The notes under the pieces: generated by a model
Told to the model about the DNA's origin: nothing
The model's database searches: none
Seen by the model: the letters and a program-made list of their open reading frames with translations, nothing else
Translations under genes and position numbers: made by a program
Part shown: positions 5,067 through 29,243 of the stretch, one piece after another
How positions within the stretch are numbered: the stretch's first letter is position 1
Layout of the letters: every line of letters starts with the position of its first letter
Assembly (NCBI RefSeq): GCF_011045215.1
Contig: NZ_CP049201.1
Source of the DNA: Escherichia coli
GTDB taxonomy: Bacteria; Pseudomonadota; Gammaproteobacteria; Enterobacterales; Enterobacteriaceae
Length of the DNA: 64,000 nt
Strand: one strand, 5' to 3'

Positions 5067-5274
5067 GCGAGCAGCATTCCTGATTTTAAACGTGAACGCC
5101 GCTGGAAGAATTATCAGGTATAGAATGGCGTCGGGTGCTTGAGGCTGTCTGGCGTTAAGCATTCGCGAGGTTCCAGATGGACAAAAGCCCCAGGCGATAT
5201 TTCTATCAACCTGAGGCCAGCGTTCGAACCTAAGCAATTCGAATGTTAGTCTCTTCTTTGCAGGGAGGCAAGAC

Positions 5275-5427
5275 ATGCTGACAAAATATGCCCTTGTGGC
5301 AATCATCGTACTGTGTTGTACAGTACTGGGATTCACGCTGATGGTAGGCGACTCGTTGTGTGAGTTGAGTATCAGAGAACGTGGTATGGAGTTTAAGGCT
5401 GTTCTCGCTTACGAATCGAAGAAGTAG
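5275..5427 (+). CDS. hokX: Hok/Gef-family type I toxin (small membrane peptide)
   Basis: 50-aa ORF not in the track (below size cutoff): [50 protein letters not shown]; GGAGG RBS 6-10 nt upstream; hairpin downstream; symbol assigned from position in the cysH-cas3 intergenic region. Confidence 0.75.
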
Positions 5428-5619: not shown

Positions 5620-8319
5620 ATGCGTAAATATCCTTTAAGTTTACTGAAGGATAAAAATATTGTGACTTTCTTTGATTTCTGGGGAAAAACCCGACGCGAC
5701 GAGAAAGAAGGGGGTGACGACTATCACCTTCTTTGCTGGCATTCGCTGGATGTGGCCGCGATGGGCTATTTAATGGTTAAAAGAAATTGCTTCGGGCTGG
5801 CTGATTATTTTCGTCAATTAGGGATTTCTGACAAGGAACAGGCGGCTCAATTTTTCGCCTGGTTGTTGTGCTGGCACGATATTGGAAAATTTGCCCGCTC
5901 ATTTCAGCAACTTTACCTGCACCCACAACTCAAGGTTCCGGAAGGCGCAAGAAAGAATTACGAAAAGATCTCTCATTCAACGCTGGGCTACTGGTTGTGG
6001 CATCATTATTTAAGTGAATGCGAAGAATTGCTTCCTGCCTCTTCACTCTCTACTCGCAAACTTAAACGTGTAATAGCGATGTGGATGCCCATGACTACCG
6101 GGCATCATGGTCGGCCCCCTGACCGTATTGATGAACTGGATAATTTTCTGCCTGAAGACAAAGTTGCCGCGCGAGATTTTCTCCTTGAAATCAAGGCACT
6201 GTGTCCGCTCATAGAGATTCCCACATTCTGGGATAATGACGAGGGAGTTGAACTTTTAAAACAACTTTCCTGGTATATCTCTGCAACAGTCGTACTTGCA
6301 GACTGGACGGGTTCGTCAACGCGATTTTTTCCACGCGTCGCACACCCAATGGATATTAAAGATTACTGGCAGAAAACTTTAGTTCAGGCTCAAAACGCCT
6401 TAACCGTCTTTCCTCCAAAAGCAGAAACCGCACCTTTCACCGGAATTAATACGCTGTTTCCTTTTATTGAGCACCCGACACCATTACAGCAAAAGGTGCT
6501 GGATCTGGATATCAGCCAGCCAGGGCCACAGTTATTTATTCTGGAAGACGTGACTGGCGCAGGTAAAACAGAAGCGGCGCTTATCCTGGCGCACAGGTTG
6601 ATGGCTGCGAGGAAAGCACAGGGTTTGTTTTTTGGCCTGCCAACAATGGCAACGGCCAATGCCATGTACGATCGGCTGGTCAAAACCTGGCTTGCTTTCT
6701 TTTCGCCAGAATCCCGCCCCAGCCTGGTGCTGGCACACAGCGCCCGTACATTAATGGAACGCTTTAATGAATCACTCTGGTCCGGTGATTTAGTCGGGTC
6801 AGAAGAACCGGATGAACAAGCGTTCAGTCAAGGATGTGCAGCCTGGTTTGCCGACAGTAACAAGAAGGCTTTACTGGCTGAAATTGGCGTCGGCACGCTG
6901 GATCAGGCGATGATGGCAGTGATGCCGTTTAAACATAATAATCTGCGGCTTCTGGGGTTGAGTAACAAAATCCTGCTGGCTGATGAGATCCACGCCTGTG
7001 ACGCTTACATGTCGTACATTCTTGAAGGGTTGATTGAGCGACAGGTGCGTGGCGGAAACAGCGTCATTTTGCTTTCTGCTACGTTATCTCAACAGCAGCG
7101 CGACAAACTTGTCGCCGCCTTTGCGCGTGGCACAGAGGGCCAGCAAGAAGCTCCGTTCCTGGAAAAGGATGATTACCCCTGGCTGACGCATGTCACGAAA
7201 TCCGATGTGCATTCGCACCGGGTAGCGACGCGCAAAGACGTTGAGCGTAGCGTGAGCGTGGGTTGGCTTCATAGCGAACAAGAATGTATTGCGCGTATCG
7301 AATCAGCGGTAAGTCAGGGGAAATGCATCGCCTGGATCCGGAATTCTGTCGATGACGCTATTAAGGTTTATCGTCAGTTACTTGCCCGCGGCGTCATTCC
7401 TGCTTCCAGCCTTTCACTTTTTCATAGCCGCTTTGCTTTTAGCGATCGCCAGCGAATTGAAACGGAAACGCTGGCACGCTTTGGTAAAAATTGTAGTTTA
7501 AAAAGATCATCTCAAGTCATTGTTTGTACACAAGTAATTGAGCAAAGTGTGGATATTGACCTGGACGAAATGATCTCCGACCTGGCCCCCATTGATTTGC
7601 TGATCCAGCGAGCGGGGCGATTACAACGGCATATTCGCGATATTAATGGTCAGTTAAAGCGTGATGGAAAAGACGAGCGTTCCCCTCCTGAATTGCTGAT
7701 TCTGGCCCCCGTCTGGGACGACTCTCCGGGTGACGAATGGTTTGGCAGTGCGATGCGTAACAGCGCATATGTCTACCCCGATCATGGGCGAATCTGGCTG
7801 ACGCAGCGAGTATTGCGTGAGCAAGGCGCTATTCAGATGCCACACGCAGCCCGGCTTCTTATTGAATCCGTCTACGGTGAGGACGTGGTAATGCCGGAAG
7901 GATTTGCCCGCAGCGAGCAGGAGCAAGTGGGCAAATATTACTGCGATCGCGCAATGGCTAAAAAGTTTATGCTGAACTTCAGGCCCGGCTATGCCGCCAA
8001 TATCAACGATTACCTCCCGGAAAAGCTGTCGACACGTCTGGCTGAAGAGTCTGTTTCCCTGTGGCTGGCTACCTGTATTGACGGTGTGGTGAAGCCTTAT
8101 GCCAGCGGTGCTCACGCATGGGAAATGAGCGTTGCCAGAGTGCGTCGAAGCTGGTGGAAAAAACATCGGGATGAATTTTCTTTACTGGAAGGGGAAGCGT
8201 TCAGGCAGTGGTGTGTTGAACAACGGCAAGATCCGGAGATGGCAAACGTGATTTTAGTCACTGATGACGAAAGTTGCGGGTATTCGGCCAGGGAGGGATT
8301 GATTGGCAAGGTTGATTGA
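5620..8319 (+). CDS. cas3: Type I-E CRISPR-associated helicase/nuclease Cas3 (HD nuclease + SF2 helicase)
   Basis: 899 aa; N-terminal HD motifs (HLLCWHSLDVAA, WHDIGK), Walker A (GAGKTEAA) and DExH-like LADEIHA; start taken from the only upstream ATG, true start may be an internal GTG. Confidence 0.93.
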   Translation: MRKYPLSLLKDKNIVTFFDFWGKTRRDEKEGGDDYHLLCWHSLDVAAMGYLMVKRNCFGLADYFRQLGISDKEQAAQFFAWLLCWHDIGKFARSFQQLYLHPQLKVPEGARKNYEKISHSTLGYWLWHHYLSECEELLPASSLSTRKLKRVIAMWMPMTTGHHGRPPDRIDELDNFLPEDKVAARDFLLEIKALCPLIEIPTFWDNDEGVELLKQLSWYISATVVLADWTGSSTRFFPRVAHPMDIKDYWQKTLVQAQNALTVFPPKAETAPFTGINTLFPFIEHPTPLQQKVLDLDISQPGPQLFILEDVTGAGKTEAALILAHRLMAARKAQGLFFGLPTMATANAMYDRLVKTWLAFFSPESRPSLVLAHSARTLMERFNESLWSGDLVGSEEPDEQAFSQGCAAWFADSNKKALLAEIGVGTLDQAMMAVMPFKHNNLRLLGLSNKILLADEIHACDAYMSYILEGLIERQVRGGNSVILLSATLSQQQRDKLVAAFARGTEGQQEAPFLEKDDYPWLTHVTKSDVHSHRVATRKDVERSVSVGWLHSEQECIARIESAVSQGKCIAWIRNSVDDAIKVYRQLLARGVIPASSLSLFHSRFAFSDRQRIETETLARFGKNCSLKRSSQVIVCTQVIEQSVDIDLDEMISDLAPIDLLIQRAGRLQRHIRDINGQLKRDGKDERSPPELLILAPVWDDSPGDEWFGSAMRNSAYVYPDHGRIWLTQRVLREQGAIQMPHAARLLIESVYGEDVVMPEGFARSEQEQVGKYYCDRAMAKKFMLNFRPGYAANINDYLPEKLSTRLAEESVSLWLATCIDGVVKPYASGAHAWEMSVARVRRSWWKKHRDEFSLLEGEAFRQWCVEQRQDPEMANVILVTDDESCGYSAREGLIGKVD

Positions 8320-8408
8320 GATGCCTGCGACAGAGACTCTCTGAATAGTTGATACACCGAAAAGGATGGATAACCGACCTGGATGGTCTTTTTTACGAGA
8401 GGATGCGT

Positions 8409-9971
8409 ATGAACTTGTTTTCACTTCTGACAACCCCGTGGTTGCCCGTTCGTTTTAAAGACGGAACGACAGGCAAACTGGCGCCAGTCGATCTGGCTGA
8501 TGAAAATGTTGTCGATATCGCCGCGCCGCGAGCAGATTTACAAGGTGCGGCATGGCAGTTTTTGCTGGGGCTACTACAAACCAGCTTTGCGCCAAAAGAT
8601 CATCGTCGTTGGGATGATATCTGGGAAGACGGACTGGAAGCTGAAAAGCTAAGGGAAGCATTGCTGTCATTAGAACATGCTTTCCAGTTTGGCCCAGATT
8701 CCCCTTCATTTATGCAGGATTTTGAGGCGCTCACGGGAGATAAAGTTCAGGTCGCTTCGCTACTGCCTGATGTTCCCGGCGCTCAAACGACGAAGTTTAA
8801 TAAAGACCATTTTATCAAGCGTGGTGTAACGGAATATCTGTGCCCCCATTGTTTAGCATTGGCCTTGTTCTCTTTACAGTTGAATGCACCAGCGGGTGGC
8901 AAAGGCTATCGCACCGGTTTGCGCGGCGGTGGGCCGATGACCACTCTGATTGAATTACAGGAATATCAGGGCAATCAACAAACACCCTTATGGCGCAAAC
9001 TGTGGCTCAACGTGATGCCGCAGGATGAAGCCGACTTACCGCTACCCCAAAAATTTGACGATCTGGTTTTCCCCTGGCTTGGCCCGACGCGTACCAGCGA
9101 ACTGGCCGGTGCGGTGGTAACCGATGATCAGGTTAATAAACTCCAGGCGTACTGGGGAATGCCACGGCGTATTCGTATTGATTTTAATACCACCACAGTC
9201 GGCAACTGCGATATTTGCGGTGAGCAGAGCGACGCGCTTCTGAGCCTGATGACGACCAAAAATTACGGCGCTAACTATGCCATGTGGCAGCATCCCTTAA
9301 CGCCTTACCGTGTACCACTTAAAGAGGGCGGCGAGTTTTACTCAGTTAAACCACAACCGGGCGGTTTAATCTGGCGCGACTGGTTAGGCCTTATCGAAAC
9401 GGGGAAATCAGAAAACAATACGGAACTTCCCGCGCTGGTGGTGAAACTCTTTAATGCCAGCAGTCTGAAACAGGCAAAAGTGGGCCTGTGGGGATTTGGT
9501 TATGATTTTGACAACATGAAAGCGCGCTGTTGGTACGAGCACCATTTCCCGCTTCTGCTCAATAAAAAAGAAGGCCAGATACCGAAACTGCGGCTGGCTG
9601 CGCAAACGGCTTCACGGATTCTGAGTCTGTTACGGAGTGCATTGAAAGAAGCGTGGTTCTCCGATCCAAAAGGTGCACGGGGTGATTTCAGTTTTGTGGA
9701 TATCGACTTCTGGAACAAAACTCAGCATCGCTTCCTGAGGTTAGTGCGCCAAATTGAAGAAGGTCAGGATGCGGATGAATTACTCGGCAAATGGCAAAAG
9801 GAAATTTGGTTATTCGCACGTCAGGATTTTGACGAGCGTGTATTCACCAATCCTTATGAGCCCGTTGATTTGGAACGCGTCATGACCGCGCGCAAGAAAT
9901 ATTTTACAACATCGGCGGAGAAGCAAAGTGCTAAAGCCGCCAGGGAGAAAAAGCAGGAGGCTGCTGAATGA
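8409..9971 (+). CDS. casA: Cascade large subunit Cse1/Cas8e
   Basis: ORF 8349..9971 trimmed to MNLFSLLTTPWLPVR (520 aa), matching the Cse1 N-terminus pattern MNL...W.PVR; conserved GLRGGGPMTTL loop region; GAGAGG RBS. Confidence 0.9.
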   Translation: MNLFSLLTTPWLPVRFKDGTTGKLAPVDLADENVVDIAAPRADLQGAAWQFLLGLLQTSFAPKDHRRWDDIWEDGLEAEKLREALLSLEHAFQFGPDSPSFMQDFEALTGDKVQVASLLPDVPGAQTTKFNKDHFIKRGVTEYLCPHCLALALFSLQLNAPAGGKGYRTGLRGGGPMTTLIELQEYQGNQQTPLWRKLWLNVMPQDEADLPLPQKFDDLVFPWLGPTRTSELAGAVVTDDQVNKLQAYWGMPRRIRIDFNTTTVGNCDICGEQSDALLSLMTTKNYGANYAMWQHPLTPYRVPLKEGGEFYSVKPQPGGLIWRDWLGLIETGKSENNTELPALVVKLFNASSLKQAKVGLWGFGYDFDNMKARCWYEHHFPLLLNKKEGQIPKLRLAAQTASRILSLLRSALKEAWFSDPKGARGDFSFVDIDFWNKTQHRFLRLVRQIEEGQDADELLGKWQKEIWLFARQDFDERVFTNPYEPVDLERVMTARKKYFTTSAEKQSAKAAREKKQEAAE

Positions 9972-10504
9972 GTATTGTAAAAGAGGAGCACAAAGCCACG
10001 CTGCGCAAATGGCATGAGGAATTGCAGGAGAAACGCGGCGAACGTGCCAGTCTGCGGCGTAGTACGACGGTTAATGATGTTTGTCTGACGGATGGATTTC
10101 GCCTGTTTCTGAAGAACAGACAAATAAAGTGGCAGGATGAACCTGAATGGCGTATTACCGCACTGGCGCTGATAGCCGCACTTAGCGCTAATGTTAAAGC
10201 CATTGATGAACGGCTGCCTTTTGCTGCGCAGCTGGCGGCGGTAATGTCAAAGGGGCGTTTTACTCGCCTGTCGGCAGTAAAAACACCGGATGAATTACTG
10301 CGCCAGTTACGCCGCGCAGTCAGATTATTAAACGGTTCCGTTAATCTTGACTCTCTGGCAGAGGGTGTCTTCCGCTGGTGCCAGGAGAGCGACGATCTGC
10401 TCAATCATCACCGCCGTCATCAGCGGCCAACCGAATTTATCCGTATCCGCTGGGCGCTGGAATATTACCAGGCTGGCGACGCCGATAACGAACAAAATCA
10501 ATAA
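9968..10504 (+). CDS. casB: Cascade small subunit Cse2/Cas11
   Basis: 178 aa basic helical protein; ATG overlaps the cse1 stop (ATGA); position between cse1 and cas7. Confidence 0.85.
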   Translation: MSIVKEEHKATLRKWHEELQEKRGERASLRRSTTVNDVCLTDGFRLFLKNRQIKWQDEPEWRITALALIAALSANVKAIDERLPFAAQLAAVMSKGRFTRLSAVKTPDELLRQLRRAVRLLNGSVNLDSLAEGVFRWCQESDDLLNHHRRHQRPTEFIRIRWALEYYQAGDADNEQNQ

Positions 10505-10515
10505 AGGACTATCTC

Positions 10516-11571
10516 ATGACGACATTTATTCAGCTTCATTTGTTAACCGCTTACCCTGCAGCCAACCTTAACCGTGATGACACCGGAGCGCCGAAAACCG
10601 TGGTCCTGGGTGGAGCAACGCGACTGCGCGTTTCCTCGCAAAGTCTGAAACGTGCGTGGCGCACTTCTGCACTTTTTGAACAGGCACTGGCGGGCCATAT
10701 TGGTATTCGCAGTGGGCGTATTGCGCGTGAGGCGGCAACGATCCTGATTGAGAAAGGCATCGAAGAGAAAAAAGCCATCGAATGGGCGGCAAAAATTGCG
10801 GATTATCTTGGGAAAGCTAAAAACGACAAAAAACCAAAAGATCCGCTCACTAACGCCGAAACTGAACAATTAGTCCATATCAGCCCGGCAGAATTTGACG
10901 CCGTAAAAGCGCTGGCCCATCAACTGGCCGAAGAAAAGCGCGCGCCAAAAGAGGAAGATCTCGCTTTGTTACGTAAAGATCGCATGGCGGTAGATATCGC
11001 TATGTTTGGTCGTATGCTGGCGAATAAACCCGAATTTAATGTTGAAGCCGCCTGCCAGGTCGCGCATGCATTTGGTGTCAGTGAAACGATTGTCGAAGAT
11101 GATTTTTTCACCGCCGTTGATGATTTGCGCCAGGCTTCTGAAGATGCCGGTGCCGGGCATCTTGGTGAAACCGGATTCGGTTCTGCGCTGTTCTACACCT
11201 ATATCTGCATCGATAAAGATCTGCTGGTCGAAAACCTCGGCGGTGACGAAGCGTTAGCTAATCAGACCTTGCGCGCCTTTACGGAAGCCGCACTTAAAGT
11301 CTCCCCAACCGGCAAACAGAACAGCTTTGCCAGCCGTGCCTACGCCTCCTGGGCGCTGGCAGAAAAAGGGACTGAACAACCACGCTCTCTGGCGGCGGCT
11401 TTCTATGAACCCATTAATGGCACCCGGCAGTTAGATGTGGCGGTGCAGCGTATTACAACGCTTCGCGAAAATATGAATACGGTCTATGAACAGAAGACCG
11501 AATGCGCAAGCTTTGACGTGATGAACAAACAGGGAAGCATGAAGGACGTGCTGGACTTTATCTGCGCGTAA
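10516..11571 (+). CDS. casC: Cascade backbone subunit Cas7e
   Basis: 351 aa; Cas7e-like N-terminal region (LTAYPAANLNRDD...SSQSLKRAWR); third gene of the effector operon. Confidence 0.9.
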   Translation: MTTFIQLHLLTAYPAANLNRDDTGAPKTVVLGGATRLRVSSQSLKRAWRTSALFEQALAGHIGIRSGRIAREAATILIEKGIEEKKAIEWAAKIADYLGKAKNDKKPKDPLTNAETEQLVHISPAEFDAVKALAHQLAEEKRAPKEEDLALLRKDRMAVDIAMFGRMLANKPEFNVEAACQVAHAFGVSETIVEDDFFTAVDDLRQASEDAGAGHLGETGFGSALFYTYICIDKDLLVENLGGDEALANQTLRAFTEAALKVSPTGKQNSFASRAYASWALAEKGTEQPRSLAAAFYEPINGTRQLDVAVQRITTLRENMNTVYEQKTECASFDVMNKQGSMKDVLDFICA

Positions 11572-11581
11572 GGGGCGGCTA

Positions 11582-12328
11582 ATGAGCCAATATTTGATTT
11601 TTCAGCTTCATGGGCCAATGGCATCCTGGGGCGTCGATGCCCCCGGCGAAGTGCGTCATACCCATGAACTGCCTTCGCGCTCAGCATTGCTGGGGCTGCT
11701 GGCTGCCGGGGTAGGGATTCGGCGTGATGATACCGAACGATTAAACGCGTTTAACCGCCACTATTCACTGGTGGTTTGCGCCAGCCGTAACCCGCGCTGG
11801 GCACGGGATTATCACACGATCCAGATGCCAAAAGAGGTGCGTAAAGCGCGTTATTTCAGCCGTCGCGAAGAGTTGAGCGACCCTGATCTTCTGAGCGCGA
11901 TTATCTCCCGGCGCGACTACTACACCGACGCCTGGTGGATGGTGGCGGTGGCAACAACAGCCGATGCGCCTTACAGCCTCGAACAGTTGCAGGGCGGTTT
12001 ACGCCATCCAGTTTTTCCTCTTTATCTGGGGCGAAAAAGTCATCCGCTGGCATTACCACTTGCGCCGTTACTGCTCGAAGGCAACGCGTCTGATGTTTTA
12101 CGTAACGCATATCACCAGTATCAGGAGCATTTCCACGACCTGAAAATCGCACTCCCGAAACTTCAGGATGAATGCTGGTGGGAAGGGGAGCACGACGGCC
12201 TGGTCGCGAGCAAAATATTGCGCCGCCGGGATGTTCCTTTAAATCGTCAGCAATGGCTGTTTGGGGAACGCACCGTCAATCAGGGGCCGTGGCTCAGCAA
12301 GGAGGAACCATGTACCTCTCAAGAATAA
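11582..12328 (+). CDS. casD: Cascade subunit Cas5e
   Basis: 248 aa; N-terminus QLHGPMASWG...LPSRSALLGLLAAGVGIRRDD resembles Cas5e. Confidence 0.9.
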   Translation: MSQYLIFQLHGPMASWGVDAPGEVRHTHELPSRSALLGLLAAGVGIRRDDTERLNAFNRHYSLVVCASRNPRWARDYHTIQMPKEVRKARYFSRREELSDPDLLSAIISRRDYYTDAWWMVAVATTADAPYSLEQLQGGLRHPVFPLYLGRKSHPLALPLAPLLLEGNASDVLRNAYHQYQEHFHDLKIALPKLQDECWWEGEHDGLVASKILRRRDVPLNRQQWLFGERTVNQGPWLSKEEPCTSQE

Positions 12329-12956
12329 CCTTACATACCGGCCAGCTTTCGCCTGCGCAGTTGCTGCATCTGGTGGAGCGCGGGGAATATGTGATGCATC
12401 AGTGGCTGTGGGATCTCTTCCCTGGCGGCAAAGAAAGGCAATTTCTTTATCGTCGGGAAGAACTCCAGGGCGCGTTTCGCTTTTTTGTACTGTCGCAGGA
12501 ACGCCCGGCGGAAAGTGAAACGTTCACCATCGAATGCCGGTCATTTGTGCCCGAGCTGCGTACCGGACAACAACTTTGTTTCAACCTGCGGGCGAATCCA
12601 ACAATCTGTAAAGCGGGCAAGCGCCACGATCTGCTGATGGAGGCGAAACGGCAGGTGAGGGGGCAGGCGGAAGGAAGTGATGTCTGGTTGCATCAACAAC
12701 AGGCGGCGCTGGACTGGCTGGCAGCGCAGGGGGAGAGAAGCGGTTTTACACTGCTGGATACCTCGGTTGATGCCTACCGACAACAGCAACTGCGGCGGGA
12801 AAACTCCCGGCAACTGATCCAGTTCAGTAGCGTGGATTATACGGGGATGCTTACGGTCACCGATCCCGGGTTATTTCTGCAACGTCTCAGTCAGGGGTAT
12901 GGCAAAAGCCGCGCGTTCGGCTGTGGTCTGATGCTGATCAAACCCGGAGCAGAGGC

Positions 12957-12960
<4 letters not shown>
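12310..12960 (+). CDS. casE: Cas6e pre-crRNA endoribonuclease
   Basis: ORF 12172..12960 trimmed to MYLSRITLH (216 aa) preceded by an AAGGAGGA RBS; C-terminal glycine-rich GxGxxxxxGxG loop; overlaps the cas5 3' end. Confidence 0.9.
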
Positions 12961-14170
<1,210 letters not shown>

Positions 14171-14266
14171 GTTATGTGTTCTTTAAAAATAAGGAAATGT
14201 TTGAATTTAGTTGGTAGATTGTTGATGTGGAATAAATTTGTTTAAAAACAGATATGTATGCTTAGT
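14171..14266 (+). promoter_or_regulatory. CRISPR leader (AT-rich; array promoter and integration-proximal region)
   Basis: 96-bp AT-rich sequence between the cas2 stop and the first repeat. Confidence 0.8.
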
Positions 14267-14478
14267 GTGTTCCCCGCGCCAGCGGGGATAAACCGGTGCA
14301 TAAAAAATGATACCCCAGCGTTTCGTTGTGTTCCCCGCGCCAGCGGGGATAAACCGATTGAAATAGATCTCCCCGACATTAACGAACAGTGTTCCCCGCG
14401 CCAGCGGGGATAAACCGGGCGCACTGGATGCGATGATGGATATCACTTAGAATTCCCCGCCCCTGCGGTAGAACTCCC
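14267..14478 (+). CRISPR. Type I-E CRISPR array: 4 repeats (29 bp) and 3 spacers (32 bp)
   Basis: Repeat GTGTTCCCCGCGCCAGCGGGGATAAACCG at 14267-14295, 14328-14356 and 14389-14417; degenerate terminal repeat GAATTCCCCGCCCCTGCGGTAGAACTCCC at 14450-14478; spacers at 14296-14327, 14357-14388 and 14418-14449. Confidence 0.97.
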
Positions 14479-14498
14479 AGCTCCCATTTTCAAACCCA

Positions 14499-23363: not shown

Positions 23364-24551
23364 ATGAGCGCGGGAAGCCCAAAATTCACCGTTCGCCGCA
23401 TTGCGGCTTTGTCACTGGTTTCGCTATGGCTGGCAGGCTGTTCTGACACTTCAAATCCACCGGCACCGGTCAGCTCCGTTAATGGCAATGCGCCTGCAAA
23501 TACCAATTCTGGTATGTTGATTACGCCGCCGCCGAAAATGGGGACGACGTCTACAGCGCAGCAACCGCAAATTCAGCCGGTGCAGCAGCCACAAATTCAG
23601 GCCACTCAACAACCGCAAATTCAGCCGGTGCAGCAGCCACAAATTCAGGCCACTCAACAACCGCAAATCCAGCCAGTGCAGCCAGTAGCTCAGCAGCCGG
23701 TACAGATGGAAAACGGACGCATCGTCTATAACCGTCAGTATGGGAACATTCCGAAAGGCAGTTATAGCGGCAGTACCTATACCGTGAAAAAAGGCGACAC
23801 ACTTTTCTATATCGCCTGGATTACTGGCAACGATTTCCGTGACCTTGCTCAGCGCAACAATATTCAGGCGCCCTACGCGCTGAACGTTGGTCAGACCTTG
23901 CAGGTGGGTAATGCTTCCGGTACGCCAATCACTGGCGGAAATGCCATTACCCAGGCCGATGCAGCAGAGCAAGGAGTTGTGATCAAGCCTGCACAAAATT
24001 CCACCGTTGCTGTTGCGTCGCAACCGACAATTACGTATTCTGAGTCTTCGGGTGAACAGAGTGCTAACAAAATGTTGCCGAACAACAAGCCAACTGCGAC
24101 CACGGTCACAGCGCCTGTAACGGTACCAACAGCAAGCACAACCGAGCCGACTGTCAGCAGTACATCAACCAGTACGCCTATCTCCACCTGGCGCTGGCCG
24201 ACTGAGGGCAAAGTGATCGAAACCTTTGGCGCTTCTGAGGGGGGCAACAAGGGGATTGATATCGCAGGCAGCAAAGGACAGGCAATTATCGCGACCGCAG
24301 ATGGCCGCGTTGTTTATGCCGGTAACGCGCTGCGCGGCTACGGTAATCTGATTATCATCAAACATAATGATGATTACCTGAGTGCCTACGCCCATAACGA
24401 CACAATGCTGGTCCGGGAACAACAAGAAGTGAAGGCGGGGCAAAAAATAGCAACCATGGGTAGCACCGGAACCAGTTCAACACGCTTGCATTTTGAAATT
24501 CGTTACAAGGGGAAATCCGTAAACCCGCTGCGTTATTTGCCGCAGCGATAA
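23364..24551 (+). CDS. nlpD: Murein hydrolase activator lipoprotein NlpD (LysM + M23 domains)
   Basis: 395 aa; lipobox LAGC; Gln/Pro-rich repeats; C-terminal M23 peptidase-like domain; rpoS promoter expected within this gene. Confidence 0.95.
23559..23678 (+). repeat. In-frame tandem repeat tract in nlpD (five 24-bp units encoding [16 protein letters not shown])
   Basis: Direct repeats seen in the DNA, including a near-identical 48-bp duplication (23583-23630 vs 23631-23678). Confidence 0.85.
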
Positions 24552-24613: not shown

Positions 24614-25606
24614 ATGAGTCAGAATACGCTGAAAGTTCATGATTTAAATGAAGATGCGGAATTTGATGAGAACGGAGTTGAGGTTTTTGACGAAAAGGCC
24701 TTAGTAGAAGAGGAACCCAGTGATAACGATTTGGCCGAAGAGGAACTGTTATCGCAGGGAGCCACACAGCGTGTGTTGGACGCGACTCAGCTTTACCTTG
24801 GTGAGATTGGTTATTCACCACTGTTAACGGCCGAAGAAGAAGTTTATTTTGCGCGTCGCGCACTGCGTGGAGATGTCGCCTCTCGCCGCCGGATGATCGA
24901 GAGTAACTTGCGTCTGGTGGTAAAAATTGCCCGCCGTTATGGCAATCGTGGTCTGGCGTTGCTGGACCTTATCGAAGAGGGCAACCTGGGGCTGATCCGC
25001 GCGGTAGAGAAGTTTGACCCGGAACGTGGTTTCCGCTTCTCAACATACGCAACCTGGTGGATTCGCCAGACGATTGAACGGGCGATTATGAACCAAACCC
25101 GTACTATTCGTTTGCCGATTCACATCGTAAAGGAGCTGAACGTTTACCTGCGAACCGCACGTGAGTTGTCCCATAAGCTGGACCATGAACCAAGTGCGGA
25201 AGAGATCGCAGAGCAACTGGATAAGCCAGTTGATGACGTCAGCCGTATGCTTCGTCTTAACGAGCGCATTACCTCGGTAGACACCCCGCTGGGTGGTGAT
25301 TCCGAAAAAGCGTTGCTGGACATCCTGGCCGATGAAAAAGAGAACGGTCCGGAAGATACCACGCAAGATGACGATATGAAGCAGAGCATCGTCAAATGGC
25401 TGTTCGAACTGAACGCCAAACAGCGTGAAGTACTGGCACGTCGATTCGGTTTGCTGGGGTACGAAGCGGCAACACTGGAAGATGTAGGTCGTGAAATTGG
25501 CCTCACCCGTGAACGTGTTCGCCAGATTCAGGTTGAAGGCCTGCGCCGTTTGCGCGAAATCCTGCAAACGCAGGGGCTGAATATCGAAGCGCTGTTCCGC
25601 GAATAA
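24614..25606 (+). CDS. rpoS: RNA polymerase sigma factor RpoS (sigma-38)
   Basis: ORF 24578..25606 trimmed to [11 protein letters not shown] (330 aa); full-length, no premature stop. Confidence 0.97.
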
Positions 25607-25626: not shown

Positions 25627-25659
25627 CCAGTCTCAAGCGAGGCTGGCCTTTTTCTTTTG
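25627..25659 (+). terminator. rpoS rho-independent terminator
   Basis: 8-bp stem (CCAGUCUC/GAGGCUGG with one G-U pair), 4-nt loop, then a T-rich tract. Confidence 0.7.
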
Positions 25660-25725
25660 TTTGGGAAGCTTGTGTTTTTGTCGCCTGGATAAGACACGTC
25701 AGCGTCCTACCCGGCAATTTGCATC

Positions 25726-26133
25726 CTATGTGTTCATCATCTTGCGCACCAGCTGCACAAACAGCTCCTGCTCTTCTGCACTCAAACGCCCCAAAAATTC
25801 CTCATCCACGCTGTCACCAATCGGTATCGCCGCAGCAAGTATCTTTTCTCCTTCGGCAGTCAGCCAGACAAAGCGACGCCGCTTGTCAGCGGCATCATGT
25901 TCACGTCTGACTAAGCCACGATTCTCCATTCTTGCCAACATTTCTGCCAACGTTGCTTTGGTGCTGACTGCTGCTTCTATCAGTGCCACCTGTTCGATAC
26001 CAGGCTTATCAGCAATGGCGCGCATCACCGCATACTGTGGTTTGGTCAGGTCAGGTAACTCGTGCTGCCAGCGAGCCGTGTGCTGCTGAAAAAGCTGTCG
26101 TAACTGATGGAACGCTTTATTTCGTAACGCCAT
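25726..26133 (-). CDS. MarR/SlyA-family transcriptional regulator
   Basis: 135 aa winged-helix regulator; divergently oriented to the downstream decarboxylase operon. Confidence 0.85.
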   Translation of the reverse strand: MALRNKAFHQLRQLFQQHTARWQHELPDLTKPQYAVMRAIADKPGIEQVALIEAAVSTKATLAEMLARMENRGLVRREHDAADKRRRFVWLTAEGEKILAAAIPIGDSVDEEFLGRLSAEEQELFVQLVRKMMNT

Positions 26134-26279
26134 GTAAACTCCGGGCTAATTCTCTGTCGCTATCATAGCGGTTTTTTAGTGACGAAGAAGATGTTGTTAC
26201 TTTTCAATCCTTGCCGCTGTGGAAATGAAGGAGTATGTTAATAATAACGTTCGTATACGAACAATTAAGAGAATAAGCA

Positions 26280-26873
26280 ATGAAACTGATCGTCGGGATG
26301 ACAGGGGCTACCGGTGCGCCTCTTGGTGTGGCATTACTGCAAGCGCTGCGGGAGATGCCGAATGTCGAGACTCATCTGGTGATGTCGAAGTGGGCGAAAA
26401 CCACCATTGAACTGGAAACGCCTTACAGCGCTCGCGATGTTGCTGCCCTCGCAGACTTCTGCCATAACCCGGCGGATCAGGCGGCGACCATCTCCTCAGG
26501 TTCCTTTCGTACCGACGGCATGATCGTTATTCCGTGCAGTATGAAAACGCTCGCCGGTATCCGCGCTGGTTACGCCGATGGCTTGGTAGGGCGCGCGGCG
26601 GACGTCGTGCTCAAAGAAGGCCGCAAACTGGTGCTGGTGCCGCGTGAAATGCCGCTTAGCACCATCCATCTCGAAAATATGCTCGCACTTTCACGCATGG
26701 GCGTGGCGATGGTGCCGCCGATGCCTGCCTTTTATAACCATCCCGAAACGGTAGATGACATTGTCCACCATGTGGTAGCCCGCGTGCTGGATCAATTTGG
26801 CCTCGAACATCCCCACGCCAGGCGCTGGCAAGGATTGCCGCAGGCCCGGAATTTTTCTCAGGAGAATGAATAA
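26280..26873 (+). CDS. ecdB: UbiX-like flavin prenyltransferase (decarboxylase subunit B)
   Basis: 197 aa; UbiX/Pad1 family (MKLIVGMTGATGA...); first gene of a three-gene operon; symbol recalled from the O157-type locus naming, treat as tentative. Confidence 0.85.
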   Translation: MKLIVGMTGATGAPLGVALLQALREMPNVETHLVMSKWAKTTIELETPYSARDVAALADFCHNPADQAATISSGSFRTDGMIVIPCSMKTLAGIRAGYADGLVGRAADVVLKEGRKLVLVPREMPLSTIHLENMLALSRMGVAMVPPMPAFYNHPETVDDIVHHVVARVLDQFGLEHPHARRWQGLPQARNFSQENE

Positions 26874-28300
26874 TGGCATTTGATGATTTACGCAGCTTTT
26901 TACAGGCGCTTGATGACCACGGCCAGTTACTGAAAATCAGCGAAGAAATGAACGCTGAACCGGATCTGGCTGCCGCTGCCAACGCCACCGGGCGTATCGG
27001 CGATGGTGCACCGGCGCTGTGGTTTGATAATATTCGCGGCTTTACCGATGCCCGCGTGGCGATGAATACCATCGGTTCCTGGCAGAACCACGCGATTTCC
27101 CTGGGCCTGCCGCCAAACACCCCGGTTAAAAAACAGATTGATGAATTCATCCGCCGCTGGGATAACTTCCCGATTGTCCCGGAACGCCGCGCCAATCCTG
27201 CCTGGGCGCAGAACACCGTCGATGGCGACGAGATTAATTTGTTCGATATCCTGCCACTGTTTCGTTTAAACGATGGCGATGGCGGTTTCTATCTCGACAA
27301 AGCCTGCGTGGTTTCCCGCGATCCGCTCGACCCAGATAACTTCGGCAAGCAGAACGTCGGCATCTACCGCATGGAAGTGAAGGGCAAGCGTAAGCTCGGC
27401 CTGCAACCGGTGCCGATGCACGATATCGCCCTGCATCTGCATAAAGCAGAAGAGCGCGGTGAAGATCTGCCGATTGCGATCACGCTCGGTAACGATCCGA
27501 TCATCACGCTGATGGGGGCCACGCCGCTGAAATACGATCAGTCTGAGTATGAAATGGCAGGCGCGCTGCGTGAAAGCCCGTACCCGATCGCCACCGCCCC
27601 GCTGACCGGTTTTGATGTGCCGTGGGGTTCAGAAGTGATCCTCGAAGGGGTCATCGAAAGCCGTAAGCGCGAAATCGAAGGGCCGTTCGGTGAGTTTACC
27701 GGACACTACTCCGGCGGGCGTAACATGACCGTGGTGCGCATCGATAAAGTCTCTTACCGCACCAGGCCGATTTTCGAATCGCTGTACCTCGGCATGCCGT
27801 GGACCGAAATCGACTACCTGATGGGGCCAGCCACCTGCGTACCGCTATATCAACAACTGAAAGCCGAGTTCCCGGAAGTGCAGGCGGTAAACGCCATGTA
27901 CACCCACGGCCTGCTGGCGATTATCTCCACCAAAAAACGCTACGGCGGCTTTGCCCGCGCGGTGGGCCTGCGCGCGATGACCACGCCGCACGGTCTGGGC
28001 TACGTGAAGATGGTGATTATGGTCGATGAAGACGTTGATCCGTTCAACCTGCCGCAGGTGATGTGGGCGCTCTCCTCGAAAGTGAACCCGGCAGGGGATT
28101 TGGTGCAGTTGCCGAATATGTCCGTGCTGGAACTCGACCCAGGCTCAAGCCCGGCGGGGATCACCGACAAGCTGATTATCGACGCCACCACGCCTGTTGC
28201 CCCGGACAACCGTGGTCACTACAGCCAGCCGGTGGTGGATTTACCGGAAACCAAAGCCTGGGCTGAAAAACTGACCGCTATGCTGGCTGCACGTAAATAA
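26873..28300 (+). CDS. ecdC: UbiD-family reversible aromatic acid decarboxylase (subunit C)
   Basis: 475 aa; UbiD family; start overlaps the ecdB stop. Confidence 0.85.
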   Translation: MAFDDLRSFLQALDDHGQLLKISEEMNAEPDLAAAANATGRIGDGAPALWFDNIRGFTDARVAMNTIGSWQNHAISLGLPPNTPVKKQIDEFIRRWDNFPIVPERRANPAWAQNTVDGDEINLFDILPLFRLNDGDGGFYLDKACVVSRDPLDPDNFGKQNVGIYRMEVKGKRKLGLQPVPMHDIALHLHKAEERGEDLPIAITLGNDPIITLMGATPLKYDQSEYEMAGALRESPYPIATAPLTGFDVPWGSEVILEGVIESRKREIEGPFGEFTGHYSGGRNMTVVRIDKVSYRTRPIFESLYLGMPWTEIDYLMGPATCVPLYQQLKAEFPEVQAVNAMYTHGLLAIISTKKRYGGFARAVGLRAMTTPHGLGYVKMVIMVDEDVDPFNLPQVMWALSSKVNPAGDLVQLPNMSVLELDPGSSPAGITDKLIIDATTPVAPDNRGHYSQPVVDLPETKAWAEKLTAMLAARK

Positions 28301-28310
28301 GGAGAAGAAG

Positions 28311-28547
28311 ATGATTTGTCCACGTTGTGCCGATGAACAGATTGAAGTGATGGCGAAATCGCCGGTGAAAGATGTCTGGACGGTATATCAGTGCCAGCAT
28401 TGCCTTTATACCTGGCGCGATACCGAACCGCTACGCCGCACCAGCCGCGAACATTATCCCGAAGCGTTCCGCATGACGCAGAAAGATATTGATGACGCGC
28501 CAATGGTGCCGAGCATCCCGCCGCTGCTGGCGGAAGGTAAGCGCTAA
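28311..28547 (+). CDS. ecdD: Decarboxylase small subunit D (Cys-rich, zinc-ribbon-like)
   Basis: 78 aa with CPRC...CQHC motif; immediately after the UbiD gene. Confidence 0.75.
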   Translation: MICPRCADEQIEVMAKSPVKDVWTVYQCQHCLYTWRDTEPLRRTSREHYPEAFRMTQKDIDDAPMVPSIPPLLAEGKR

Positions 28548-28555
28548 TAAAAAGT

Positions 28556-28583
28556 GCCGGGTAGTGGCTTTGCTTTACCCGGC
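28556..28583. terminator. Hairpin terminator between convergent ecdD and pphB
   Basis: Perfect 8-bp stem GCCGGGTA/TACCCGGC with a 12-nt loop; U-run on the pphB (minus) side. Confidence 0.55.
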
Positions 28584-28587
28584 CTCA

Positions 28588-29243
28588 TTACTTTATTTTA
28601 TAAAATGACAGCCGCCCGCTGTTCGGCGATCCGGTATCAATATAAATCTGGTTAGCGAACGTCTGAATGTTATCAAACATCATATGTCCAAATATAAAAT
28701 AATCAGCGCCGTTTATTTGTTGTAACTCGCCATTAAGCGATTTCTGCACACGATCAACAGGCCAGAGTAATTCGCTCTCCGCTATTTCTTTACCAAAGAG
28801 ATATTCACTCCCCGGATAATCTGCATGTGCGATGACATATTTTATGTTGTCGTTAGTGATTTAATAATATGTGGAAGGTGATGGAATTTCAGCAACAGAT
28901 CTATTGCCTCTTGTTGCTCTGAATCATTTAAATCGAAAAACCAGTCACCACCGCTGGCAAGCCACATATTTCCATCGCCAGTTTCGAATGCCTCAAGGGC
29001 CATCGCTTCGTGGTTGCCTTTAGCCGATGTAAACCAGGACTGGTTTAACAGGCGCAGCACGTTAAGACTCTCCGGCCCACGATCGATGTTATCGCCTGTG
29101 GAAATAAGTAAGTCGGTTTCAGGGCAAAAAGAGAGTTGATGTAAACGGGATTGTAATAACTGATATTCACCATGAATATCACCAACGACCCATATATGGC
29201 GATAATGATGGGCATTGACTTTTTGATAGCGTGTAGATGGCAT
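28588..29243 (-). pseudogene. pphB: Serine/threonine protein phosphatase 2 (PphB), disrupted by a 1-bp frameshift
   Basis: N-terminal 133 aa (GDIHG, GDNIDRG motifs) ends at stop 28842; the C-terminal part continues in the -1 frame to a stop at 28588; frameshift near 28860. Confidence 0.8.

Follow-up and report, generated by a model that had tools for sequence, protein, structure and literature searches.

This study concerns the interval between rpoS and mutS in a 64,000-nucleotide (nt) stretch of an Escherichia coli chromosome (NCBI RefSeq assembly GCF_011045215.1, contig NZ_CP049201.1), the whole of which we call the window. Between the two genes lie a MarR-family regulator gene and, transcribed away from it, three genes for the subunits B, C and D of a decarboxylase. 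We are highly confident that this locus is HosA-EcdBCD, also known as VdcBCD, KpdBCD or 'Pad1/YclC', an accessory and substrate-inducible non-oxidative hydroxyarylic acid decarboxylase.

Genes of the rpoS-mutS interval

A preliminary description of the window, made from the letters and their open reading frames (ORFs), had proposed a divergently transcribed MarR-family regulator and a three-gene UbiX/UbiD/small-subunit decarboxylase operon. Both parts were borne out, as the ORF at 25726-26133 on the minus strand matches MarR-family models of NCBIfam down to E=5e-25, and the ORFs of B, C and D lie on one strand, in the gene order of the VdcBCD/EcdBCD type with its small D of about 9 kDa, and pass the cut-offs of the VdcB, VdcC and VdcD models. 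The start ATG of C overlaps the stop codon of B by 1 nt and only 10 nt separate C from D, while pphB and mutS on the far side are convergent to the operon (Table 1).

The segment limits given at that stage, 25700-28590, are within about 50 bp of the borders found by BLAST against the K-12-derived strain C600 and PapM-32-1. Homology to K-12 ends at 25652, directly past the rpoS terminator, and restarts at 28589, in the pphB stop codon. K-12 was said to carry a different gene set here, and it does, namely ygbN-ygbM-ygbL-otnK-ltnD-ygbI; this needs the refinement that many strains carry both modules. As strains such as PapM-32-1 have them side by side, the cassette and the ygb module are additive rather than alternative.

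Table 1. Features of the interval and its flanks, in window coordinates
Feature	Position	Strand	Basis
rpoS, left flank, intact, 330 amino acids (aa)	24614-25606	+	ORF list
rpoS terminator hairpin	25627-25646	+	terminator-like site scan; fold -17.3 kcal/mol
segment absent from K-12, 2,936 bp, O157:H7-type rpoS-mutS segment	25653-28588		BLAST borders vs C600 and PapM-32-1
hosA, MarR-family, 135 aa	25726-26133	-	ORF list and PDB match
hosA-B divergent intergenic region, 146 bp	26134-26279
13-nt palindrome CGCTATCATAGCG	26158-26170		inverted-repeat search
14-bp palindrome GTTCGTATACGAAC, HosA operator as judged from sequence	26249-26262		inverted-repeat search
subunit B (EcdB/VdcB/Pad1), UbiX-type flavin prenyltransferase, 197 aa	26280-26873	+	NCBIfam VdcB; PDB 1SBZ
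subunit C (EcdC/VdcC), UbiD-family reversible decarboxylase dependent on prenylated flavin mononucleotide (prFMN), 475 aa	26873-28300	+	NCBIfam VdcC; PDB 7AE4
subunit D (EcdD/VdcD), zinc-ribbon activator subunit, 78 aa	28311-28547	+	NCBIfam VdcD; PDB 7AE4_a
hairpin GCCGGGTA-N12-TACCCGGC, between convergent D and pphB	28556-28583		folding of both strands
pphB, right flank, frameshifted	28588-29243	-	ORF list; PphB model match
mutS, right flank, intact, 853 aa	29349-31910	-	ORF list

Family and active-site residues of the decarboxylase

To assign the three subunits we used the curated NCBIfam cut-offs, which are 650 bits for VdcC, 290 for VdcB, 30 for VdcD and 788 for the UbiD equivalog PRK10922. 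The score of C was 786.9 bits with VdcC (E=4.6e-237), that of B 312.6 bits with VdcB (E=7e-94) and that of D 121.2 bits with VdcD (E=1.2e-35), all above cut-off, whereas C reached only 172.9 bits with PRK10922. C also failed the models for menaquinone decarboxylase and BagN, and it stayed below the cut-offs for the alpha and beta subunits (Ppc) of phenylphosphate carboxylase (TIGR02723, 120.1 against 564.6; TIGR02724, 145.2 against 468.95). The bagremycin/ferroverdin BagM/BagN/BagL cut-offs were likewise missed (NF041218, 342.1 against 420; NF041219, 113.2 against 1000; NF041230, 88.1 against 230).

The comparison with characterised decarboxylases proposed in the preliminary description gave the same picture. 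B is identical to PDB 1SBZ at 195 of 197 residues, and C aligns over residues 3-471 with the VdcC chain of PDB 7AE4, the VdcCD of Sedimentibacter hydroxybenzoicus, at E=6.5e-160 (536 bits). Matches of C to other structures were at about 1e-46 for E. coli UbiD and about 1e-25 to 1e-28 for AroY-type protocatechuate decarboxylases, and D matched the ShdD chain 7AE4_a at E=3.4e-11. With stop codons excluded, the subunits are zero to two residues from those of E. coli O157:H7 (B 195/197, C 473/475, D 78/78).

B and C could be thought to be the housekeeping UbiX/UbiD pair that decarboxylates 3-octaprenyl-4-hydroxybenzoate, as they belong to the UbiX and UbiD superfamilies and pass the generic models TIGR00421 and TIGR00148, and as E. 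coli UbiD structures do match C. On the sequence evidence the family scores already refute this reading, which we consider next to impossible; C groups with the accessory clade and not with housekeeping UbiD, the outcome on which the preliminary description had staked its proposal. Moreover, the locus comes with a VdcD subunit and a repressor that senses 4-hydroxybenzoate, and about 55% of complete E. coli genomes lack it, which would be impossible for an essential gene of an aerobic pathway. The E. coli chromosomes that do carry it show a second UbiD-like place elsewhere.

The residues expected of an active enzyme are in place. C retains N161, R166, H183, E225, E269 and E274, that is, the catalytic R166/E269/E274 together with metal- and prFMN-binding residues; N161, H183 and E225 correspond to N168, H191 and E233 of Fdc1. 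E274 aligns with E278 of the S. hydroxybenzoicus enzyme (ShVdcC), which serves as the catalytic Glu within the conserved E(D)-R-E motif (PMC8379154). The cysteines of D (Cys3, 6, 28 and 31) form two CXXC knuckles and have the same numbering as the zinc ligands of ShVdcD. Published work describes VdcC as inactive without VdcD, the two forming a tight complex in which the zinc-ribbon VdcD supports the loops that bear the catalytic triad; UbiX supplies the prFMN of VdcCD, and the holo-enzyme is oxygen-sensitive (PMC8379154).

As to the substrate, a review table counts EcdCD of E. coli O157:H7 among the decarboxylases of 4-hydroxybenzoate, with the same two substrates as BsdBCD of Bacillus subtilis and StdBCD of Salmonella, and its highest activity, under the heading for 4-hydroxybenzoate decarboxylase, is on compound 49a (PMC6644310). 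The statement in the preliminary description that the native substrate is not determinable from sequence is hence outdated, since 4-hydroxybenzoate is known from experiments on near-identical orthologues. We think it very unlikely that another phenolic acid, for example protocatechuate (AroY-type) or gallate (LpdC-type), is the main substrate. The family is promiscuous, with several further substrates given for the Klebsiella enzyme in the same table (PMC6644310), and C does match protocatechuate decarboxylase structures; but it is far closer to VdcC than to these AroY-type structures, its partner is VdcD, which has no sequence similarity to LpdD (PMC8379154), and its cognate regulator responds specifically to 4-hydroxybenzoate. 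Further, the O157:H7 enzyme that is listed as highest on 49a differs from C by two residues.

Compared with O157:H7, C has 46 synonymous and two non-synonymous differences, giving a ratio of non-synonymous to synonymous differences (pN/pS) of 0.013, while B has eight and two and D two and none; over B and C the ratio runs from 0.013 to 0.08. As the differences are nearly all synonymous, the decarboxylase genes are kept by selection and are not decaying. This bears on the idea of a cassette in decay, a remnant without function within a recombination hot spot, which might be suggested by the frameshift in the neighbouring pphB, by the mosaic nature of the interval, where identity to other strains varies by block, and by loss of the cassette in many lineages. 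Against these stand, besides the overwhelmingly synonymous substitutions, four full-length ORFs, intact catalytic, metal-binding and zinc-binding residues, and an operator that is a perfect palindrome, so that we regard a remnant as extremely improbable.

HosA, its operator and the proposed mechanism

The regulator is identical at 133 of 135 residues to PDB 8AGA, 'Transcriptional regulator HosA', with six further PDB entries matching likewise, and at 134 of 135 to the O157:H7 protein. By analogy with these proteins, it is a MarR-family repressor that would sense 4-hydroxybenzoate. The acid (4-HBA) dissociates HosA from a 14-bp site and binds it with a dissociation constant (KD) of 4.74 uM (PMC6261655). 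Relief of DNA binding by 4-hydroxybenzoate has been reported for the HosA of both UMN026 and O157:H7, and a published HosA study found up to 38-fold induction in vivo that was specific to this compound.

An inverted-repeat search of the divergent region revealed GTTCGTATACGAAC, a perfect palindrome that stands 17 bp upstream of where B starts. The same site in the same flanks (…TAATAATAAC-site-AATTAAGAGAATAA…) occurs in the published HosA binding-site oligonucleotides (supplement, PMC6261655), and on this sequence match it is the HosA operator. Strains D8 and PapM-32-1 conserve it and O157:H7 AC-3 shows a single mismatch, GTTCGTATGCGAAC (L001 2150-2163), the intergenic region as a whole having about 20 differences from O157:H7.

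The search also returned CGCTATCATAGCG, a second palindrome that stands 25 nt upstream of where hosA starts. All four aligned strains have it unchanged while neighbouring intergenic bases vary, and it is followed by a T-run, hence its flag as terminator-like in the scan. We speculate that it may be an undescribed regulatory site, for instance one through which HosA controls its own gene, or a target of a second regulator tying the operon to stationary phase beside rpoS. That the region holds more than the known operator is, in our estimate, unlikely, and we rate in the same way the separate possibility, taken up below, that the short layout of the interval spread by recombination.

The working of the locus can be proposed as follows. 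A ligand-free HosA dimer on GTTCGTATACGAAC upstream of B would repress the operon, and binding of 4-hydroxybenzoate would free HosA from the DNA. B, as a UbiX-type flavin prenyltransferase, is then predicted to make reduced prFMN, with which C, through its Arg166/Glu269/Glu274 triad, would reversibly remove CO2, turning 4-hydroxybenzoate into phenol and probably vanillate into guaiacol; D, the four-cysteine zinc ribbon, would bind C and be required for its activity. The gene content and order, the near-identity to studied proteins, the sequence of the operator, the residues for catalysis and zinc binding and the purifying selection are read from the sequence itself, whereas repression, induction by 4-hydroxybenzoate, the range of substrates and what D does come from published experiments, either on E. 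coli orthologues zero to two residues away or on more distant relatives (ShVdcCD). We infer that the present allele acts alike and that the reaction runs physiologically towards decarboxylation. The sequence holds nothing at odds with the HosA-EcdBCD explanation.

Some points do limit this explanation. Activity, binding and expression of the present allele rest on its orthologues, and no finding singles out one purpose in E. coli among detoxification, phenol production and cofactor supply. In the hosA-B region a sigma-70 consensus scan returned no promoter with 9 of 12 matches; the best candidate by eye, TTGCCG-17 nt-TATGTT at 26211-26239, matches at 8 of 12 positions and we make no promoter claim for it. 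It should also be noted that the substrate table used above names compounds by number. Compound 57a is presumably vanillate, in line with what Lupa et al. 2005 reportedly found, and the identity of 49a with 4-hydroxybenzoate is read from the heading of the table (PMC6644310).

We also considered that the locus in vivo serves mainly carboxylation, from phenol to 4-hydroxybenzoate, or mainly the supply of prFMN, with B as a backup of UbiX. The reaction is reversible in this family (PMC8379154 and PMC6644310) and B is a genuine UbiX-family enzyme. However, the inducer is the acid and not the phenol, the window has no phenol-activating genes (phenylphosphate synthase or kinase), C is far under the cut-offs for phenylphosphate carboxylase subunits, and B is co-transcribed with C and D, its stop overlapping the C start. 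Taken together we find either role quite unlikely and prefer inducible decarboxylation by HosA-EcdBCD.

Junctions, distribution and comparison with known systems

The segment has a G+C content of 55.1%, with 57.4% in B and C, compared with 53.2% for the window, 51.8% for rpoS and 42.0% for pphB. On the left, rpoS translates to the very protein annotated in strain D8 (RpoS WP_000081550.1); the rpoS of O157:H7 AC-3 is annotated as frameshifted (L001 516-1507). On the right, the hairpin between D and pphB folds with -18.4 kcal/mol on the plus strand (z -2.9) and -19.9 kcal/mol on the minus strand (z -4.2), and is likely a two-way terminator for these convergent genes. Its sequence is identical in O157:H7 and absent from PapM-32-1 and K-12, whose junctions carry other hairpins, and it is thus a joint specific to the short, O157-type layout; every layout junction compared carries its own, different terminator-like hairpin. 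Over 28400-28599, D8 and the window are 98-99% identical.

A check for boundary repeats, which the preliminary description had proposed, turned up little. Only one repeat brackets the cassette, an inverted one of 14 nt with a single mismatch, at 25707-25720 and 28551-28564. We rejected it as mobile-element ends: by a rough estimate, 3.5 kb should contain about one pair of this kind by chance, and the right arm spans 28554, where homology with the long-layout strain ends, so that we treat the repeat as chance plus hairpin sequence. No insertion sequence or integrase gene was found near the cassette in the gene content of the window, and an Rfam scan of the window detected no RNA family within the decarboxylase locus.

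The only unusual feature near the locus is the frameshifted pphB. In the alignment there is a 1-bp deletion near 28863, reading ATTATT-AAATC here and ATTATTGAAATC in O157:H7 (a missing G), so that the ORF stops at 133 aa instead of 218 and covers positions 1-128 of the 218-position PphB model. No species-representative genome contained the exact 29-mer across the deletion. Identity to O157:H7 and D8 is only about 87-91% in the 5' half of the gene but nearly complete in the 3' half, which makes pphB a mosaic.

The rest of the window has the E. coli gene order, with cysJIH, a type I-E cas operon, iap, cysDNC, ispDF, truD, surE, pcm and nlpD leading up to rpoS, and mutS, ygbA, fhlA, hyp, hyc, asc, hypF, nor and srl following the interval. 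The region 5620-14480 holds the cas operon (cas3 through cas2), which was identified by size and order relative to K-12, and after it a very short CRISPR array at 14266-14478, in which three good repeats of 30 nt and a fourth, degenerate one are spaced by 61 nt. The only Rfam family in the window is the sok antitoxin RNA (RF01794, 111.7 bits) at 5133-5290 on the plus strand, between cysH and cas3. In nlpD (23364-24551) a tandem repeat of 24/48 nt at 23554-23682 encodes reiterated QPQIQ(P/A)(V/T)QQ units. The product is 395 aa here, while the genes annotated in the compared E. coli and Salmonella strains have 1083-1095 nt (360-364 aa), and we take this greater length of the ORF to reflect a polymorphism in repeat number.

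The preliminary description had called the interval polymorphic, and the population data agree: among 5,426 complete E. coli genomes the cassette occurs in 2,417 (about 44%), always on the chromosome and in several layouts, and RefSeq annotates the same four genes in these 2,417 genomes. The contiguous short layout rpoS-hosA-BCD-pphB-mutS, as in O157:H7, was found in 801 complete genomes, while in the long layout, for example in PapM-32-1, the cassette is followed by the K-12 ygb module. A polymerase chain reaction (PCR) survey of 510 strains sorted the rpoS-mutS layouts into patterns I to IV, tied to phylogroup (PMC4209514).

At the nucleotide level the locus is 96.5% identical to O157:H7, and as the best match among the complete E. 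coli genomes is 98.7%, it is a distinct allele. Over 24 kb the closest of the 5,426 genomes is PapM-32-1, from a baboon, with 99.1% identity; mutS was matched in 5,418 genomes at 98.9% or less. The source lineage is therefore one with poor representation in the complete E. coli genomes, or else a Shigella. Identity to other strains shifts block by block across the locus into pphB and mutS, as expected for a recombination-prone region. The present genome combines the short layout with flanks closest to a long-layout strain, and this layout may have spread by recombination rather than by descent. The original papers on the polymorphism are LeClerc 1999 and Herbelin 2000, the founding work being listed among the references of the 510-strain survey (PMC4209514); these and Roy & Ranjan 2016 are cited here by way of later papers. 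The occurrence of the cassette in Salmonella and Klebsiella fits long residence in the interval with lineage-specific loss, in line with the title of Herbelin et al. 2000.

Carriage on plasmids in E. coli was considered and rejected, as the search of PLSDB gave no evidence of a current mobile vector. In this tblastn search with C, near-identical copies occurred only in records of 4.8-5.4 Mb or 0.57-0.73 Mb from E. coli, Klebsiella and Salmonella, and at least two of these are mislabelled chromosome pieces carrying rpoS, nlpD and, in Klebsiella, mutS. Genuine megaplasmid copies, about 89-92% identical, are those of Pantoea and Rahnella.

The locus, its regulator, inducer and operator, the enzyme chemistry and the polymorphism in the population are all already published. 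What the analysis adds is that the genome is placed with those of the short, O157-type rpoS-mutS layout, which is an established marker for typing, and that by analogy the strain is predicted to convert 4-hydroxybenzoate to phenol, which may bear on phenol and phenyl sulfate production in the gut. It further provides one more natural allele of a HosA biosensor, and one of a prFMN decarboxylase that finds use in biocatalysis.

Among known systems the regulator has distant relatives in PcaV (PDB 4FHT, E=3.3e-16) and SlyA (about 5e-8), which share the winged-helix MarR fold and a phenolic-acid ligand; it is HosA and not SlyA, though older annotations use slyA. UbiX and UbiD of ubiquinone biosynthesis share folds and prFMN chemistry with B and C, the UbiX-type enzyme making the cofactor and the UbiD-type enzyme using it, but they are unlinked housekeeping genes that act on a prenylated substrate without a D subunit, and UbiD has Asp at the position of Glu274 in C (EGPYGD in UbiD, EGPFGE in C).

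VdcCD of S. hydroxybenzoicus (PDB 7AE4/7AE5/7AE7) and BsdBCD/VdcBCD of B. subtilis share the UbiD-type C with its E-R-E motif, the zinc-ribbon D with four cysteines at identical positions, and the substrates 4-hydroxybenzoate and vanillate, though their sequences are more distant and their hosts are Gram-positive anaerobes or Bacillus. Closer are KpdBCD of Klebsiella and StdBCD of Salmonella, with the same MarR-B-C-D cassette and a C protein about 97% identical. In Salmonella Senftenberg (NZ_LN868944.1, 7833-11712) the cassette is inverted relative to E. coli, D adjoining rpoS with a ygb-type module beyond. In Klebsiella pneumoniae (CP125156.1, 2201-11847) it stands between rpoS and mutS, with DUF4440, MFS and LysR genes separating rpoS from the regulator and a hok/gef gene in place of pphB. 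Both records are filed as plasmids, yet they carry core chromosomal genes.

The closest system is HosA-EcdBCD of E. coli O157:H7 and UMN026, where the same four genes stand in identical order and orientation at the same place in the chromosome. O157:H7 also shares the short layout, the junction hairpin, the operator sequence as published and proteins no more than two residues apart; it differs in the operator, where AC-3 has one mismatch and the window a perfect palindrome, and in pphB, which is frameshifted here. The present allele departs in nothing from the known HosA-EcdBCD system.

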